Source: an uncultured Lachnospiraceae bacterium
Lineage (GTDB): Bacteria > Bacillota > Clostridia > Lachnospirales > Lachnospiraceae
Direction: 5' to 3'
Length of the DNA stretch: 64,000 nucleotides
Assembly (NCBI GenBank): GCA_947643615.1
Contig: CANRWO010000011.1
Span: 10,195-74,194, forward strand
Below, one piece after another: positions 42,536-49,747 of this stretch. Each line of letters starts with the position of its first letter. Position 1 is the stretch's first letter. The position numbers and the translations under genes are program-made. The notes under the pieces are model-generated. The model did not search any database. It was not told where the DNA came from and saw only the letters and a program-made list of their open reading frames with translations.

Positions 42536-43369
42536 ATGAATAAAAAGATTATTTCTGTTTTTCTGGTTTGCGGAATGTTAATTTTACACAGTTTTTCAGT
42601 CCTTGCAGCAACTCCAACGACAGATTTTTCCGGTCATATGGAAGATATCATAATCCAACAGGCGCTTGCATTGGATCAGTCCTCAAATATCGAAGGAAAA
42701 GATTTTACTGCAGTAGTGTTAAGCCAAGGTGATTTGAGCATTGGTCCGCTCTCCGGTGATGCGGTTGTCACAGAACAGGCTATCCAGGCGGTAAGCATCG
42801 AAGGAGACTTAATAGAAGTAACCACTATTTTCCCGTATAAGATTACGTCTGATGGGGAACTGGTGAACAGCTTTGAATATACACCCACGCAGATTACAAG
42901 AGATAGCACGGATCCGACGACATTTGTTGATATTACCGTTACAATTGTCACATATTATGGTCAATATTTCAATTTAGATATTGCCACCTCTTTTTACAGG
43001 CATGGTGGAATAGAAGCCTATTGGAATTCGAGTAATTCTACAGCCGGGGTTTCAAACCTGTGTGTAGCATATGAGTCAGCAGGGCATATGTACCAGTATC
43101 CAGAATGCACTACAGCATCCTATAAAACTATATCATCTTTCTTAATCCAAAGAGACTATTTTATCAGTAGCTCTATTGACCAGAACAATCCTGTCAAAGG
43201 TCAGTCCTATTTCGATGGGGATCATACCATGTCCCGAAGTACTGTACTGGATTGTGCAAATGCACTTGAGCATGGGGGAATGGTTTCTGTTACATTGACC
43301 TATTCAGTGAACGGGAAGAGCTATGTTCATGACAGAACTTATAACGTATATGGAGGAGTGAGTTCGTGA
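42536..43369 (+). CDS. Secreted beta-rich protein of unknown function
   Basis: GGAGG RBS; signal peptide MNKKIISVFLVCGMLILHSFSVLA; more AT-rich than flanking housekeeping genes; GTGA overlap with the next gene. Confidence 0.8.
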   Translation: MNKKIISVFLVCGMLILHSFSVLAATPTTDFSGHMEDIIIQQALALDQSSNIEGKDFTAVVLSQGDLSIGPLSGDAVVTEQAIQAVSIEGDLIEVTTIFPYKITSDGELVNSFEYTPTQITRDSTDPTTFVDITVTIVTYYGQYFNLDIATSFYRHGGIEAYWNSSNSTAGVSNLCVAYESAGHMYQYPECTTASYKTISSFLIQRDYFISSSIDQNNPVKGQSYFDGDHTMSRSTVLDCANALEHGGMVSVTLTYSVNGKSYVHDRTYNVYGGVSS

Positions 43370-44031
43370 TAACTATGCATAGCAATTATGTGTTAAAAAG
43401 GTGGTTTATAGTGTTACTTGCAACTCTCTTCTTGTGCTCCTGCGGTGAAAGTACAACTGGATCTGAGGAAACCTCAAATCTCTTTGAGTATGCGTTGGAA
43501 ATAGAGGACGGGGTATTCTCCCCCAATCAGGCGGACTTTTTCATGAGCGTGGAGGAGGTACTCCAGTCGGCAGGGTTAGAGGAATATACTGTTATTGAAA
43601 AGGACGGTGGAGATCTGATCAGGACAAGTGTGAATATCAACGGGTTTCCTAATGAAATTACGATAGATTATGTTATAAGTGAAGATGTTAATAATCGGAT
43701 TACCGGAATACAGTATTGGACCCTGGTGGATGAAGCAGACGCGGGTGGCGTATACAATTTATTATACGAACAGGCAGTTTCCACTATGCCCGAAGCCTCC
43801 GGCAATACCATAGAGGGAATAAAGGATGGGATAGGCGCTTCATGGGAAGATAAAGAACAAAATTATGTACGTCTTATTATTTTAAATGAAAAGAATTCTC
43901 ATCCCGGGACAGATTCAGAAATAATTATATTGCAAATTGTGGCAACAAGAAATTCTTCTTTTGTGCCGGAAGACTTGAAGAGTCTCTATGAAAATTCCAT
44001 GTTGGAGAGATCAAATCAGGAAAGGCAGTGA
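43366..44031 (+). CDS. Lipoprotein, tandem paralog 1
   Basis: Lipobox FLCSC; shares identical blocks with 44086..44745. True start may be ATG 43375. Confidence 0.85.
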   Translation: MITMHSNYVLKRWFIVLLATLFLCSCGESTTGSEETSNLFEYALEIEDGVFSPNQADFFMSVEEVLQSAGLEEYTVIEKDGGDLIRTSVNINGFPNEITIDYVISEDVNNRITGIQYWTLVDEADAGGVYNLLYEQAVSTMPEASGNTIEGIKDGIGASWEDKEQNYVRLIILNEKNSHPGTDSEIIILQIVATRNSSFVPEDLKSLYENSMLERSNQERQ

Positions 44032-44748
44032 TACACGGGAAATGGTTCTCAGAAGATGTGAGGCGAAACCGGAGGAGCATGATATATGGATAAAAATAGT
44101 GTGTTAAAAAGTCTTTTGATAGCGTTGCTTGCAGTTGTCTTCTTATGCTCCTGTGGTGAAAGTACAACTGGATCTGAGGAAACCTCAAATCTCTTTGAGT
44201 ATGCGTTGGAAATAGAGGACGGGGTATTCTCCCCCAATCAGGCGGACTTTTTCATGAGCGTGGAGGAGGTACTCCAGTCGGCAGGGTTAGAGGAATATAC
44301 TGTTATTGAAAAGGACGGTGGAAAAAGAATCAGGACAAGTGTGAACATTGACGGGTTTCCGGCTCCTTTTGTATTAGATTATGTCTTCAGTGATGCCATC
44401 GGTACGCGGCTTACAGGAGTACAATATCATCTGAGCATAGTCAATAAAGAGGATGCGGATAGTGTATACAGTCTATTATACGAACAGGCAGTTTCTACTA
44501 TGCCTGAAGCCTCCGGCAATACCATAGAGGGGATAAGTGAGGGGATAGATGTGGCATGGGAAGACAAAGAGCAGAATAATGTCTGGCTTTGGTTTTTTAA
44601 TAAGGAAAATGACCACCCAGAAACAGTAGCAGAAACAATTATATTGCAAATTGTGGCAACAAGAAATTCTTCTTTTGTGCCGGAAGACTTGAAGAGTCTC
44701 TATGAAAATTCCATGTTGGAGAGATCAAATCAGGAAAGGCAGTGATAC
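43444..44748 (+). repeat. Two pairs of perfect direct repeats within the lipoprotein pair
   Basis: 168 bp: 43444-43611 = 44155-44322. 112 bp: 43923-44034 = 44637-44748. Confidence 0.9.
44086..44745 (+). CDS. Lipoprotein, tandem paralog 2
   Basis: GGAGG RBS; lipobox FLCSC; shares identical blocks with paralog 1. Confidence 0.85.
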   Translation: MDKNSVLKSLLIALLAVVFLCSCGESTTGSEETSNLFEYALEIEDGVFSPNQADFFMSVEEVLQSAGLEEYTVIEKDGGKRIRTSVNIDGFPAPFVLDYVFSDAIGTRLTGVQYHLSIVNKEDADSVYSLLYEQAVSTMPEASGNTIEGISEGIDVAWEDKEQNNVWLWFFNKENDHPETVAETIILQIVATRNSSFVPEDLKSLYENSMLERSNQERQ

Positions 44749-44806
44749 CCGTGCAGGCGTCTATTGTCTGCGGAAAAATGCGGGATTAAAAAATTAAAAG
44801 TTTGAA

Positions 44807-44836
44807 TTGACTTTTCCGGTGGAATTATGTTATATT
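44807..44836 (+). promoter_or_regulatory. Putative sigma-A promoter of the polyamine leader/operon
   Basis: TTGACT (44807) - N18 - TATATT (44831) with TG at the extended -10; predicted start near 44843. Confidence 0.65.
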
Positions 44837-44842
44837 GTGGGC

Positions 44843-45027
44843 GTATGGAGAACAGATCATTTAGAGTCTTCCATGCAAATATTTTGGCAACTGTGTTGCC
44901 TTATTGATTGAGTTAGAAGCTCAAATTTTATAAGTTGGTTACTATAAACCGGTGCAGATGCACACCTAACTTGTGAAACGGTCAATAAGAGTAGTAAAAG
45001 TAAAATATTTGCTATATAGACTCTAAA
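44843..45027 (+). ncRNA. Candidate structured RNA of about 185 nt (leader module or 6S-like RNA)
   Basis: Nested stems 44860-69/45018-27 (10 bp), 44875-85/45002-12 (11 bp), 44901-08/44981-88, 44926-38/44966-78 (13 bp, 3 G-U), plus side hairpins. Confidence 0.55.
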
Positions 45028-45108
45028 AACCACATATCTGTTTGTTCCGTATTTGTTTTGCCATCCCCTGAACCTGCGGCTGGTAAAACGGAATAACACA
45101 GAATATAC

Positions 45109-45147
45109 AAGGCAAGTGACGGTATGCGTCCCTTGCCTTTTTGTATT
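45109..45147 (+). terminator. Intrinsic terminator upstream of speD
   Basis: AAGGCAAG-T-GACG-GTATG-CGTC-C-CTTGCCTT followed by TTTGTATT. Confidence 0.75.
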
Positions 45148-45270
45148 CCTGAAAAACCTGCTGCATAGTTATTGGCTAATCAGGCATTTCACGAACCTGA
45201 TATGAGTGGCCGCTTCAGCGGACAAATGGGAGTTATCAAGATACTTTCGGAAATAGAAACGAGGATAACC

Positions 45271-46029
45271 ATGAGTGAAAAGATTTCCCTGTACGGATTT
45301 AATAACCTGACCAAATCCCTGAGTTTTAACATATATGACGTGTGTTATGCAAAGTCCCAGCGGGAGCAAAAGGACTATATTGCCTATATTGACAGACAGT
45401 ATAATTCCGAACGTTTGGTTAAGCTTTTGACCAATGTGACGGATATGATCGGAGCCCATGTGTTGAATATATCCAGCCAGGACTATGAACCCCAGGGCAG
45501 TTCCGTGACGATTTTGATTGGGGAAAAGAGTAAGATACCTGCCGGGGATACTACCGTGGCACATCTGGACAAGAGCCATATTACGGTGCACACTTACCCG
45601 GAGTACCACCCCGAGACGTGCCTGGCCACCTTCCGGGTAGATATTGATGTGGCTACCTGTGGGGAGATCACACCGCTTTCCACCCTGGACTACCTTATTG
45701 GGTCTTTCGATTCGGATATCATTACCATGGATTACCGGGTGAGGGGTTTTACCAGGGATCTGGGCGGGCATAAATTGTTCATGGACCACAGAATCACATC
45801 CATTCAGGACTATATTGCGGGAGAGACATTGCAGAAATACGACGCAGTGGACATTAATGTTTATGACGCAAACATTTTTCATACAAAAATGCTGATCAAA
45901 GATATTGATTTGCAGAATTATCTTTTTAATAGTGACGTCTATGAGCTGCCGCCGAAGACCAGGCTGGAAATTATAGACAATCTGCGGAGAGAGATGATTG
46001 AAATATTCAGCGGGAGAAATGTATATTAG
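45271..46029 (+). CDS. speD: S-adenosylmethionine decarboxylase proenzyme
   Basis: [33 protein letters not shown] self-cleavage motif, DV.TCG.I.PL. Confidence 0.95.
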
Positions 46030-46061
46030 AATTATCCGGATAAGATAAGGAAGACAGAGGC

Positions 46062-47522
46062 ATGGGGCGTTTTAATCAGGCAAGGGCGCCTATTTATGAG
46101 GCGTTGGAGGAATTCAGGAAAAACAGGGTGGTGCCCTTTGACGTACCGGGGCATAAGAGAGGCAGGGGCAACCCGGAGCTGGTAGGGCTTTTGGGGCAGC
46201 AGTGTGTGGGGATTGACGTCAATTCCATGAAACCCCTGGACAACCTCTGCCACCCCGTGTCCGTGATCCGGGAGGCGGAGGAGATGGCGGCGGAGGCGTT
46301 CGGCGCGGCGTACGTTTTCCTCATGGTGGGAGGGACTACTTCCTCGGTACAGAGCATGGTGCTCAGCGCCTGCAAACGGGGGGACAAGATCATTCTCCCC
46401 AGAAATGTCCACAGGAGCGTTATCAATGCCCTGGTACTGAACGGCGCAATTCCCATATATGTAAATCCGGACACAGATAACAGACTGGGGATCGCCCTGG
46501 GCATGAAGGTTTCCCAGGTGGAAAAGACCATCCGGGAGAACCCCGACGCGGTGGCAGTGTTGGTGAATAATCCGACTTATTACGGGATATGCTCCGACTT
46601 GCGGAGCATTGTGAAACTGGCCCACTCCCATGGAATGAAGGTTTTGGTGGACGAGGCTCACGGAACGCATTTTTATTTTGGGGAGAATATGCCTGTGTCA
46701 GCCATGGAGGCGGGGGCGGATCTGGCGGCGGTTAGTATGCATAAGTCCGGCGGAAGCCTGACCCAAAGTTCCTTTCTGCTGGTGGGAGCCAATATGCATC
46801 CCGGCTATGTGCGGCAGATCATTAATCTGACTCAGACTACCAGTGCGTCCTATCTGCTTTTGGCCAGCCTGGATATTTCCCGAAGGAATTTGGCGCTGCG
46901 GGGAAAAGAGGAATTTCGCAAGGTAACGGCGCTTGCGGAATACGCAAGGGAGGAAATCAACAGGATCGGCGGGTATTATGCCTATACTGCGGAGTTGGTT
47001 AACGGTGACAGCATATATGATTTTGACCGGACCAAGCTCACTGTCAATACGTTGGGGATTGGCCTTGCGGGGATTGAGGTTTATGATGTCCTGCGGGATG
47101 AATATGACATTCAGATGGAGTTGGGGGATATTGCAAATGTCCTTGCTTATATCTCCATCGGAGACAGGGAGCGGGATATGGAGCGCCTGATCAGCGCGCT
47201 TGTGGAGATTAAGCGACAATACCGAAGGGACAATGCAGGAATGTACACTCAGGAATATATAGAGCCTAAGGTTGCGGTTTCCCCACAGAATGCATTTTAC
47301 GCGGAAAAGGAATCTCTTCCGCTTATGGAGACGGAGGGACGTATTTGCAGTGAGTTTGTTATGTGCTATCCTCCCGGGATCCCGATCCTGGCACCGGGCG
47401 AGGAAATCACGGCGGATATCCTGGAGTACATTTCTTATGCCAAGGAGAAAGGCTGCTCCATGACGGGGCCGGAGGATGCGGATATAGAAAGGTTGAACGT
47501 TTTAAAAGAGATTTGGGCATAG
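46062..47522 (+). CDS. Arginine/lysine/ornithine decarboxylase (fold-type I PLP)
   Basis: FDVPGHK, VGGTT, PRNVH, DEAHG, SMHKSGG, TTS.SY, YPPGIP. Confidence 0.92.
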   Translation: MGRFNQARAPIYEALEEFRKNRVVPFDVPGHKRGRGNPELVGLLGQQCVGIDVNSMKPLDNLCHPVSVIREAEEMAAEAFGAAYVFLMVGGTTSSVQSMVLSACKRGDKIILPRNVHRSVINALVLNGAIPIYVNPDTDNRLGIALGMKVSQVEKTIRENPDAVAVLVNNPTYYGICSDLRSIVKLAHSHGMKVLVDEAHGTHFYFGENMPVSAMEAGADLAAVSMHKSGGSLTQSSFLLVGANMHPGYVRQIINLTQTTSASYLLLASLDISRRNLALRGKEEFRKVTALAEYAREEINRIGGYYAYTAELVNGDSIYDFDRTKLTVNTLGIGLAGIEVYDVLRDEYDIQMELGDIANVLAYISIGDRERDMERLISALVEIKRQYRRDNAGMYTQEYIEPKVAVSPQNAFYAEKESLPLMETEGRICSEFVMCYPPGIPILAPGEEITADILEYISYAKEKGCSMTGPEDADIERLNVLKEIWA

Positions 47523-47539
47523 AAAAGGAGGGTTTGTGT

Positions 47540-48400
47540 ATGGAACTTTGGTTTTCGGAGCCACATACGCCGAATGTAAAATTATCCATCCGGGTAGACA
47601 GGCAGCTATACAGCGGCCAGAGCGAGCTTCAGCAGATCGAGGTGTTTGAATCGCCGGAGTTTGGAAGGTTTCTGGTGCTGGATGGCTATATTATGCTGAC
47701 AGAGAAGGATGAATTTATTTATCATGAGATGATTGTGCATGTCCCTATGGCGGTACACCCCCATGTGAAAAAAGTGCTGCTTATCGGCGCCGGGGACGGC
47801 GGCGCGGTGCGGGAGCTTGTCCGTTATCCGGAGATTGAACGGATTGACTTGGTGGAGATCGACGAGGAAGTGATCAAGGTATGTATGGACTATCTTCCTA
47901 AAGTATCCTGTGAGCTTCGCAATGAAAAGGTCAAGATCCATCTGGAGGACGGCTTAAAATATGTGCGGTCCAAAGAAGACGAATACGATCTCATCATTGT
48001 GGATTCCACAGATCCCTTTGGCCCCGGGGAGGGATTGTTTACCAAGGAGTTTTACGGAAACTGCTACAAGGCGCTGAAAGAGGACGGCATCATGGTAAAC
48101 CAGCATGAGAGTCCGTTTTACGAGACGGACGCTACAGCTTGTATGCGCGCCCATAAACGGATTGTGGAGAGCTTTCCCATCAGCCGTGTGTATCAGGCGC
48201 ACATCCCCACTTATCCGTCGGGGCATTGGCTGTTTGGCTTTGCGTCAAAGAAATATCATCCGGTCCATGATATGGACGGGGAGAGATGGCTGGAGCGGGG
48301 ATTGGAGACAAAGTATTATACGCCGAAGCTCCATGAAGGGGCGTTCTGCCTGCCTGCTTATGTAGAGAACCTGCTCAGGAAGGTGGAAGTGCACGGTTAG
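47540..48400 (+). CDS. speE: Spermidine synthase / polyamine aminopropyltransferase
   Basis: GGAGG RBS; LVLDG, YHEMIVH, LIGAGDGG, VEID, IIVDSTDP. Confidence 0.95.
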   Translation: MELWFSEPHTPNVKLSIRVDRQLYSGQSELQQIEVFESPEFGRFLVLDGYIMLTEKDEFIYHEMIVHVPMAVHPHVKKVLLIGAGDGGAVRELVRYPEIERIDLVEIDEEVIKVCMDYLPKVSCELRNEKVKIHLEDGLKYVRSKEDEYDLIIVDSTDPFGPGEGLFTKEFYGNCYKALKEDGIMVNQHESPFYETDATACMRAHKRIVESFPISRVYQAHIPTYPSGHWLFGFASKKYHPVHDMDGERWLERGLETKYYTPKLHEGAFCLPAYVENLLRKVEVHG

Positions 48401-48469
48401 GACTGCGTGTGCCACCTGCAAAGGCGACAGAATGGATGACTTATTTAAAAGGGGAGGTAAAATCAAAAG

Positions 48470-49747
48470 ATGGCTAAAATATTGATTATCGGCTGCGGAG
48501 GCGTTGCCTCCGTGGCTATTCAGAAGTGTGCGGGAAAGGCGGATGTGTTTTCCGAGATCTGCATTGCCAGCCGCACAGTAGGCAAATGTGACGCTTTGAA
48601 GGCAAAAATAGAGGAAGAATTCCAAAAAACCGGAAGGAAGCTTCCCGTTATCACCACTGCAAGGGTGGACGCTGATCATGTGGAAGAATTGGAGGCGCTG
48701 ATCAAAAAGGAACAGCCGAAGGCAGTTTTGAACCTGGCGCTGCCGTATCAGGACTTGACCATTATGGATGCCTGCCTTGCCTGTGGTGTGGATTATATTG
48801 ATACCGCAAATTATGAGGCGGAGAATACGGAGGATCCCCAGTGGAGGGAAGCTTATGAAAAGCGCTGCAGGGAGAAAGGGTTTACGGCTTACTTTGACTA
48901 TTCCTGGCAGTGGGCATATAAGGAGCGGTTTGAAAAAGCAGGGATTACGGCTCTTTTGGGAAGCGGCTTTGATCCCGGCGTCACCAGTGTGTTTTCTGCC
49001 TATGCCCTGAAGCACTATTTTGACGAGATTCATTATATTGACATCATGGACTGCAACGGCGGTGACCATGGCTATGCCTTTGCCACCAATTTTAATCCCG
49101 AAATTAATCTGCGGGAGGTTTCCGCCAACGGCTCTTACTGGGAGGACGGCCATTGGGTGGAGACAAAGCCTATGGAGATCAAGCGGGAATACGATTTTGC
49201 CCAAGTGGGAAAGAAGGATATGTACCTTCTGCACCATGAGGAAATCGAGTCCCTGGCAAAAAACATTCCCGGCATTAAGAGGATCCGCTTCTTTATGACT
49301 TTTGGGCAGAGCTACCTGACCCATATGAAATGCCTGGAAAATGTAGGCATGCTGCGCACGGATCCGGTCATGTTCGAAGGGAAGGAGATTGTGCCCATCC
49401 AGTTTTTAAAAGCGCTTCTTCCTGATCCCGCCTCCTTGGGCCCCCGGACAGTGGGTAAGACAAACATCGGCTGTATTTTTACCGGTGTGAAGGACGGCGC
49501 GGAGAGATCCATCTATATTTACAATGTCTGTGACCATCAGGAGTGTTATAGGGAACTGGGTTCACAGGCCATCTCTTACACCACCGGCGTCCCGGCTATG
49601 ATCGGCGCCATGCTGGTGATGGACGGCACTTGGAAGAGACCGGGTGTGTTCAATGTAGAAGAGTTTGACCCCGACCCTTTTATGGAGGCCCTGAACGAAT
49701 ACGGCCTGCCTTGGGTGGTGGAGGAGAACCCGGTTATGATAGATTGA
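48470..49747 (+). CDS. Carboxyspermidine dehydrogenase (saccharopine dehydrogenase family)
   Basis: IIGCGGVA, NLALPYQDL, GSGFDPG, FATNFNPEINLRE, HEEIESL, YTTGVPA; polyamine operon context. Confidence 0.92.
   Translation: MAKILIIGCGGVASVAIQKCAGKADVFSEICIASRTVGKCDALKAKIEEEFQKTGRKLPVITTARVDADHVEELEALIKKEQPKAVLNLALPYQDLTIMDACLACGVDYIDTANYEAENTEDPQWREAYEKRCREKGFTAYFDYSWQWAYKERFEKAGITALLGSGFDPGVTSVFSAYALKHYFDEIHYIDIMDCNGGDHGYAFATNFNPEINLREVSANGSYWEDGHWVETKPMEIKREYDFAQVGKKDMYLLHHEEIESLAKNIPGIKRIRFFMTFGQSYLTHMKCLENVGMLRTDPVMFEGKEIVPIQFLKALLPDPASLGPRTVGKTNIGCIFTGVKDGAERSIYIYNVCDHQECYRELGSQAISYTTGVPAMIGAMLVMDGTWKRPGVFNVEEFDPDPFMEALNEYGLPWVVEENPVMID

Follow-up and report, generated by a model that had tools for sequence, protein, structure and literature searches.

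The stretch of DNA considered here, hereafter the window, comprises 64,000 nucleotides (nt) from an uncultured Lachnospiraceae bacterium (assembly GCA_947643615.1, contig CANRWO010000011.1, positions 10,195 to 74,194 of the forward strand), and all coordinates below refer to it unless another contig is named. Its plus strand carries a polyamine operon (45271-49747) whose genes were identified by Pfam as speD (45271-46029, PF02675), a speA-like Orn/Lys/Arg decarboxylase of the OKR_DC_1 type (46062-47522, PF01276 and PF03711), the spermidine synthase gene speE (47540-48400, PF01564 and PF17284) and a saccharopine/carboxyspermidine dehydrogenase-like gene (48470-49747, PF03435 and PF16653). The element of interest lies ahead of this operon on the same strand: a promoter-led, strongly folding leader RNA (44843-45051) with an intrinsic terminator downstream (45109-45147), which by sequence comparison belongs to a large, ultraconserved family of regulatory RNAs of the Bacillota. 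We regard the region 44843-45147 as the leader of the speD/speA-like/speE/dehydrogenase operon and, with moderate confidence, as a cis-acting OFF switch that works by transcription termination and serves as a putative sensor of spermidine.

A sigma-70-type promoter (TTGACT-18-TATATT, 44807-44836, plus strand; 10 of 12 matches, with an extended -10 TG ahead of the -10) is found at the same place in relatives L002-L008, and the transcript predicted from it would start near G44843, the first base of a competing helix designated Px. The Px 5' strand GUAUGGAG (44843-44850), at the very 5' end of the transcript, has two potential partners: UUCCAUGC (44869-44876), in the linker between helices P0 and P1, with which it forms Px, and 45045-45051, with which it pairs as part of helix P(-1). 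The latter joins UAUGGAG-AACAGAU (44844-44857) to AUCUGUU-UG-UUCCGUA (45036-45051) and is present in the minimum free energy (MFE) fold of the whole leader. Nested within it are P0 (UUUAGAGUCU, 44860-44869, with 45018-45027) and P1 (GCAAAUAUUUU, 44875-44885, with 45002-45012), whose 3' strands, placed by folding and alignment, are separated by the linker UAUAU (45013-45017); the sequence GCUAUAUAGACUCU within this 45002-45027 segment is nearly invariant in alignments. Next comes the P2 hairpin, GGCAAC-UGU-GUUGCC (44886-44900), opposite which lies a 13-nt purine-rich strand, GAGUAGUAAAAGU (44989-45001), invariant or nearly so in its alignment columns. The ultraconserved core, P3-P6 (44901-44988), is enclosed between the two. 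Here P3, assigned from the fold (44901-44907 with 44982-44988), closes a junction containing the hairpin P3a (44908-44924) and the helix P4 (44929-44936 with 44968-44975), which includes two U.G pairs and in turn closes P5 (44937-44950) and P6 (44952-44963); a joining strand, AAACGG (44976-44981), leads from P4 back to P3. Folding of the whole leader adds P(-1), a spacer hairpin between sensor and terminator (45052-45092), which is lineage-specific and not conserved in sequence among relatives, and the terminator itself, AAGGCAAG-u-GACG / CGUC-c-CUUGCCUU followed by UUUGUAUU (-17.5 kcal/mol). From there 124 nt remain to the speD start, the conserved position of which, as judged by tblastn alignment with relatives, is the ATG at 45271, preceded by a GAGGA ribosome-binding site. 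The speD frame is open further upstream, to a TTG at 45172 (plus strand).

The 185 nt beginning at 44843 fold on the plus strand with a predicted energy of -52.7 kcal/mol, compared with -34.7 +/- 4.3 kcal/mol for shuffled sequences (z = -4.2; none of 200 shuffles as good). The minus strand folds about as well (z = -4.8), so folding energy alone cannot assign the strand; the plus strand is assigned because of the conserved U.G pairs of P4, the promoter, the terminator and the orientation of the downstream gene. A first-pass annotation, made from the letters of the sequence, had described nested stems, a hairpin opposite a 13-nt purine-rich bubble and a strong promoter, all of which we find where it placed them, and its appeal to G-U pairs in favor of the plus strand agrees with the two U.G pairs of P4, both of which are kept in 89-95% of sequences. 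It had left a choice between a switchable cis-element for polyamine genes and an independent 6S-like RNA. A 6S-like, RNA polymerase-binding RNA, or else a functionless chance or AT-rich fold, would accord with the length of ~185 nt, the closed ends, the asymmetric internal bubble and the equally good folding of the minus strand, but we give such readings next to no credence. The 6S family RF00013 is unmatched in the window at gathering level and in 44700-45320 even at E <= 10, and the genome has a genuine 6S RNA elsewhere (G000 contig C10:57502-57696, minus strand, L164; 64.7 bits against a cut-off of 46.4). While the window RNA shares its length, paired ends and internal bubble with 6S RNA, it differs in being branched, in being linked specifically to polyamine genes and in having a terminator before the gene; a chance fold is excluded by the conservation, covariation and gene linkage described below. 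The cis-element half of the earlier alternative thus stands, with a polyamine gene downstream in ~130 of 135 family loci and usually a terminator between, and the 6S-like half falls.

The core was found by DNA search in 26 of 61 genomes of relatives, other families of the order included, at 83-96% identity. The homologous segment in the window spans 44880-45027, and its nucleotide identity to the longer forms discussed below is 83-94%. Conservation reaches much further: the 23-mer CTTGTGAAAYGGTCAATAAGAGT (44970-44992) recurs exactly in at least 120 GTDB species from three classes, the Bacilli (Priestia, Paenibacillus, Bacillus, Neobacillus and Brevibacillus), the Clostridia (many Lachnospiraceae, Oscillospiraceae, Ruminococcaceae and Clostridiaceae) and the Negativicutes (Acidaminococcus). 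A coding explanation of the conserved core was set aside by direct reading and not by a dedicated test: stops occur in all three plus-strand frames, length differences in P2 and P6 are not multiples of three, and the sequence overlapped by an 80-residue minus-strand open reading frame (44857-45099) varies by base pairs and not by codons.

Comparison with Rfam, proposed in the first-pass annotation with 6S, ldcC and riboswitches in mind, yields no match for the window RNA. A search of the whole window returned nothing at gathering level for the leader, and at E <= 10 the interval 44700-45320 gave noise only, namely RAGATH-35 (19.8 bits) and a microRNA family. For RF02440, the ldcC motif, nothing in the window reaches the gathering score of 37.2 bits, and there is no match at E <= 10 in 44700-45320 and none above the cut-off in the whole source genome; the same annotation had placed an ldcC motif at 45150-45270, and none is present in 45172-45270. 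What it overlooked is the homology of the leader to others that do contain this motif. In most relatives an insert of 55-80 nt separates the P1 5' strand from P2, and in the long forms L009-L019 this insert is RF02440, 'SpF59 sRNA (ldcC RNA)', at 65-71 bits against the cut-off of 37.2. In the window the bulged ldcC hairpin with its conserved GAGGCCAUACGGACAGCCGGGUC is missing, and P1 (44875-85) runs straight into P2 (44886-900). By sequence inspection the hairpin is truly absent from ~20 of the 134 scorable loci that were fetched, in several unrelated sequence contexts. A model built on the part present in the window (R1, 150 positions) scores 149.9 bits on 44880-45027, and a full-length model (R2, 229 positions with 64 pairs) aligns the window end to end over 44858-45029 at 127 bits. 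Of 401 genomes sampled evenly across the phylum, 23 have an R1 match and 16 an RF02440 match above its cut-off; every one of these 16 RF02440 matches directly adjoins an R1 match, while seven genomes, that of the window included, have R1 without RF02440.

The ldcC motif was described as a bulged hairpin that may form a pseudoknot and that precedes potA or genes for decarboxylases of arginine, ornithine or S-adenosylmethionine (SAM); its function was unknown, and a role in polyamine homeostasis was suggested (Weinberg et al. 2017; PMC5737381). The window RNA shares these gene associations (arginine, ornithine and SAM decarboxylases, PotA) and the phylum (Firmicutes), and its own location, 5' of speD (PF02675) and of the OKR_DC_1 decarboxylase, is the one described for ldcC. 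As judged from these comparisons, the 54-nt ldcC/SpF59 motif is an optional inserted arm of a much larger RNA, of which the window provides a natural short form lacking it. The window leader is accordingly a variant of the known orphan ldcC family, whose real extent is several times that of the catalogued motif. Where RF02440 models 54 nt, the conserved RNA measures ~170 nt in its short form and 225-260 nt in its long form and, unlike the model, comprises at least ten helices in addition to a terminator switch and a 5' toggle. We found no paper describing the larger structure or a ligand for it. Variation in the arm and elsewhere was also observed. Loci L054, L070, L105 and L122 (uncultured Clostridia or Clostridiaceae) have a divergent ldcC arm (…GCCCAUCGGACAGGGCUGGCC…) at the usual place before P2, and three of them (L054, L105 and L122) also differ at the 3' end, where another sequence takes the place of the usual P1'/P0' tail; the four loci may form a separate subfamily. 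In L028, L035, L153 and L157 the P3a hairpin is 20-40 nt larger, and in L116 and L037 an additional hairpin (GGCAACU..AUUGCC) lies within P4, such that the core tolerates insertions at defined points.

Each genome has one copy of the family RNA, which immediately precedes a polyamine gene in the same orientation; five gene contexts are represented. Among the first 20 loci collected, the window's own included, the next gene is speD in 12, a speA-like decarboxylase in seven and potA in one. When the next gene was classified by motif at 135 loci, speA-like decarboxylases were most frequent (55), followed by speD (31), potA-like ABC ATPases (25) and carboxyspermidine-dehydrogenase-like genes (17); of the seven classed as other, two are by eye speA-like and two dehydrogenase-like. 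A divergent family member precedes an agmatinase gene (speB). Such a range of targets, five gene classes from a single pathway together with its importer, is classically the mark of a cis-regulator that responds to a metabolite. At two Intestinimonas-like loci (L085 and L125) the next gene encodes a lipoprotein of 728-762 residues (MRRNTELKRRLTALLLTLGLVSGLAACG…) and is no known polyamine gene; this lipoprotein could be an unrecognized polyamine-binding or polyamine-processing protein.

In MAFFT alignments the P1, P5 and P6 segments of different lineages were not in register, and alignments based on covariance models (CMs) were used in their place. For the 3' domain (100 sequences), 95.7% of cells are paired and 18 of 31 pairs have changed on both sides; none of 500 shuffles reached the observed values, and sliding the 3' partners by 1-3 columns reduced pairing to 29-46%. 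The full-length R2 alignment (99 sequences) behaves similarly, with 92.6% of cells paired, double changes at 49 of 64 pairs, no shuffle among 500 reaching the observed values and at most 40% pairing in the slid controls. Covariation is strong in the inner pairs of P1 (one of which is AU in 34 sequences, UA in 23 and GC in 12), both ldcC stems, P2 (compensatory changes at six of six pairs), P3a, P5 and P6. It is modest for P0, which is 84% paired as a helix, with some double change at all eight pairs. P3 and P4 are nearly invariant and afford few compensatory events, confined to divergent members (for example UUAUUGA/UCAAUAA replaced by GUGUUGA/UCAACAU). Together with the results for P(-1) given below, they show a secondary structure of the form P(-1)-P0-P1-P2-P3(P3a, P4(P5, P6)), and the compensatory changes that the first-pass annotation had asked for in homologs are present. 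In place of P3, plain RNAalifold on the long forms proposed a pairing, GACC/GGUC, of the ldcC hairpin with the 3' domain. Both segments are invariant, so covariation cannot decide the matter; this pairing was rejected, as short forms without GACC keep P3 and three divergent members have compensatory changes in P3.

The competing 5' helix is also conserved. In the window the Px duplex, GUAUGGAG (44843-50) with UUCCAUGC (44869-76), has a predicted energy of -9.7 kcal/mol; over 57 loci the mean is -6.94 kcal/mol compared with -3.68 for shuffled sequences, the observed mean was reached by none of 3000 cross-locus permutations, and compensatory variants (UUGGAAAG/CUUUCCAA, UUGAAAAG/CUUUUCAA and GUAUGGAA/UUCCAUGC) are found across lineages. 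P(-1) is likewise a family trait. Its duplex in the window amounts to -15.5 kcal/mol, and across the family the pairing of strands from the same locus (-10.25 kcal/mol) exceeds that of strands from different loci (-7.31 kcal/mol; z = -7.9; 0 of 3000 permutations). Hence the 5'-terminal GGAA-type strand has two conserved partners, the P0-P1 linker (in Px) and the tail that follows P0 (in P(-1)), which are mutually exclusive because both helices use the same 5' strand. The competition noticed in the first-pass annotation is therefore conserved family-wide, and it excludes a second conserved helix; what went unrecognized there is that P(-1) extends the structure to 45051 and that this structure and the terminator (45109-45147) are coupled. 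From geometry we infer that Px and P0 could coexist solely as a pseudoknot. Since Px is transcribed first and P(-1) last, the arrangement suggests a kinetic toggle, the outcome of which, we hypothesize, frees or sequesters the tail adjoining the terminator. A switch at the 5' end is thus plausible.

A terminator, consisting of a hairpin and a U-run, intervenes between RNA and gene in 101 of 140 family loci (~72%), and its 5' half contains a recurrent, family-wide CAAGUG motif. The best partner of this 5' half is the combined 3' strands of P6 and P4 in 80 of 117 loci. Our initial idea, that the 3' strand of P1 would be the antiterminator partner, was abandoned, as it is the best partner in few loci only. 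Over the whole segment, own-locus pairing averages -12.4 kcal/mol compared with -10.1 across loci (z = -10.9), and none of 3000 permutations reached the observed value. Because P6 varies between species, its pairing with the terminator is testable by such cross-locus comparison, and the variable P6 part alone (16 nt) retains a signal (z = -6.4; again 0 of 3000 permutations). The co-variation of the terminator 5' half with the P6/P4 3' strands supports the existence of a conserved antiterminator that would compete with the aptamer core. As this antiterminator is built from strands of the aptamer, a folded aptamer, presumably with its ligand bound, would leave the terminator free, which is the logic of an OFF switch. 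The terminator 5' half of the window (45108-22) finds its best partner instead at 45047-61 (-11 to -14.7 kcal/mol), a segment overlapping the 3' strand of P(-1). In size, in the possession of a multi-helix junction with invariant joining strands, in occurring once per operon and in the competition of terminator and antiterminator, the family resembles the lysine and cobalamin riboswitches; it differs from those classes in that the antiterminator derives from the internal 3' strands of P6 and P4 and not from the 3' strand of the closing helix, and in that its 5' end has two conserved alternative partners.

The coupling of terminator and aptamer also bears on whether the ~300-nt terminated transcript (44843-45147) might be mainly an independent, trans-acting small RNA whose position before polyamine genes is secondary. 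Having its own strong promoter and its own terminator, it would accumulate as a discrete RNA, and the Rfam family carries the name 'Streptococcus sRNA SpF59'. We nevertheless consider this role as the principal one very improbable, given a single copy per genome that always lies directly upstream of a polyamine gene on the same strand in five contexts, and a terminator that co-varies with the aptamer, the signature of a cis-switch. The two roles are not mutually exclusive.

We propose the following sequence of events for the OFF switch. The Px hairpin would form first during transcription and probably set the kinetic window in which the decision is taken. The ligand of the folded core would be a polyamine end product. 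Spermidine is the most logical candidate, since all of the regulated steps serve either to make it or to bring it into the cell; a putrescine-type intermediate is an unlikely effector, because an OFF switch would then block that intermediate's own conversion. Binding would lock P4 and P6 together with the closing helices P0 and P(-1), leaving the terminator 5' half free, whereupon the terminator would form and transcription would halt before speD. Without ligand, the terminator 5' half would be captured and the polymerase would read through, the capturing strand being P6/P4 in most relatives and, in the window, more probably the released tail at 45047-45061.

Several considerations weigh against this scheme. 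Literature searches found no ligand-binding, transcript or termination data for the window RNA or its relatives. Polyamines bind RNA non-specifically, a property that has given rise to false claims of riboswitches in the past (PMC10853860). On the structural side, near-invariance leaves P3 and P4 barely tested by covariation, CM alignments lean toward the structure of the model, and the permutation tests ignore phylogenetic relatedness, so that related sequences inflate the shuffle tests. In the window itself the canonical pairing with P6/P4 amounts to a weak -7.5 to -8.2 kcal/mol, the alternative partner 45047-45061 lacks conservation even among the nearest relatives, and the whole leader is predicted to adopt the terminator state at its MFE, such that the read-through conformer of the window is not identified with confidence. 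Finally, sequence conservation as extreme as that of the core would also fit a binding site for a protein or the ribosome.

This last point raises the prospect of a cis-acting attenuator whose sensor is a protein or other macromolecule (an RNA-binding regulator, the ribosome or a tRNA) engaged on the core, with no direct binding of a small molecule. Nearly invariant sequence of ~100 nt across three classes is more than most metabolite aptamers need and resembles the conservation of protein- or ribosome-binding RNAs, and the terminator logic would be equally workable with a protein effector. No regulator gene, however, is consistently linked to the family, the upstream genes varying by locus; across widely differing genomes the RNA is invariably placed right in front of the gene it regulates, in the manner of riboswitches; and junctions of several helices linked by conserved strands are a typical feature of aptamers. 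On balance, we think a macromolecular sensor rather unlikely. The same reservation applies more strongly to a riboswitch-type element of different logic or ligand, that is an ON switch, or one responding to precursors or by-products such as agmatine, putrescine, decarboxylated SAM (dcSAM) or methylthioadenosine (MTA), or to general cation or polyamine charge. The computed ground state of the window is the terminator, and a ligand that stabilized Px would free the tail at 45045-45061 to capture the terminator 5' half, turning expression ON; authors studying a variant of the SAM-I riboswitch likewise had to weigh MTA and dcSAM (PMC10853860). End-product repression nonetheless fits best with the regulation of synthesis, uptake (potA) and several pathway steps, and the family antiterminator uses P6/P4, so that a folded aptamer favors termination. 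We judge these variants distinctly unlikely, and retain the spermidine-sensing OFF switch as our preferred interpretation.

That SAM-I variant is a spermidine riboswitch which terminates transcription of speD, speE, speB and ldcC in Bacilli (Salvail et al. 2023; PMC10853860). It is the sole validated natural class of polyamine riboswitch, known from 13 examples, all in Bacilli, and its authors expect more classes (PMC10853860); their paper alone emerged from our literature search for a validated ldcC, putrescine, agmatine, cadaverine or polyamine riboswitch. The leader described here is comparable in several respects, as a Firmicutes leader of speD/speE/speB/ldcC-type genes that would act as an OFF switch via an intrinsic terminator with a polyamine end product as its presumed effector. 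It is not an instance of that class: neither RF00162 nor any other SAM-clan family matches 44700-45320 at E <= 10, the helix topology differs, with fold and junction architecture unrelated, and the 13 known examples contrast with the at least 120 species and three classes of the present family. More tentatively, and with a confidence that falls somewhat short of even, we suggest a second natural class of polyamine (spermidine) riboswitch whose aptamer would be the RNA of ~170-250 nt as opposed to the 54-nt hairpin, and which would be widespread and structurally unrelated to the SAM-I variant. It would control both the synthesis (speA-like, speB, speD, carboxyspermidine dehydrogenase) and the uptake (potABCD) of polyamines across Bacilli, Clostridia and Negativicutes by an unusual readout of two layers, one being the antiterminator formed by the internal aptamer strands P6/P4 and the other a 5'-terminal GGAA strand toggling between its UUCC partners in Px and P(-1).

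If this is true, the hairpin-less form in the window shows that the catalogued motif is dispensable for sensing. ldcC has been an orphan since 2017, and binding assays restricted to the 54-nt motif could fail if the larger RNA is the sensor; we found no reports of such assays in the literature. Natural short forms such as that of the window define a minimal construct, 44843-45030 or extending to 45051. An extension of the Rfam model would be needed; in its present state it detects none of the short forms. Confirmation of the ligand would mean that polyamine synthesis and import are under a widespread form of regulation, with an unusual expression platform, in the Bacillota of gut, rumen and soil.

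Upstream of the leader, the plus strand carries two tandem lipoprotein paralogs (43366-44745) of 221 and 219 residues, which have identical N- and C-terminal blocks and divergent middles, and for which no Pfam match was found. The RAGATH-35 match mentioned above (44745-44828, plus strand) is weak and sub-threshold (19.8 bits, with the gathering score at 38.9; E = 0.37) and lies in the gap that separates the lipoprotein stop codon from the promoter of the leader, where it probably represents either noise or the terminator hairpin of that gene.

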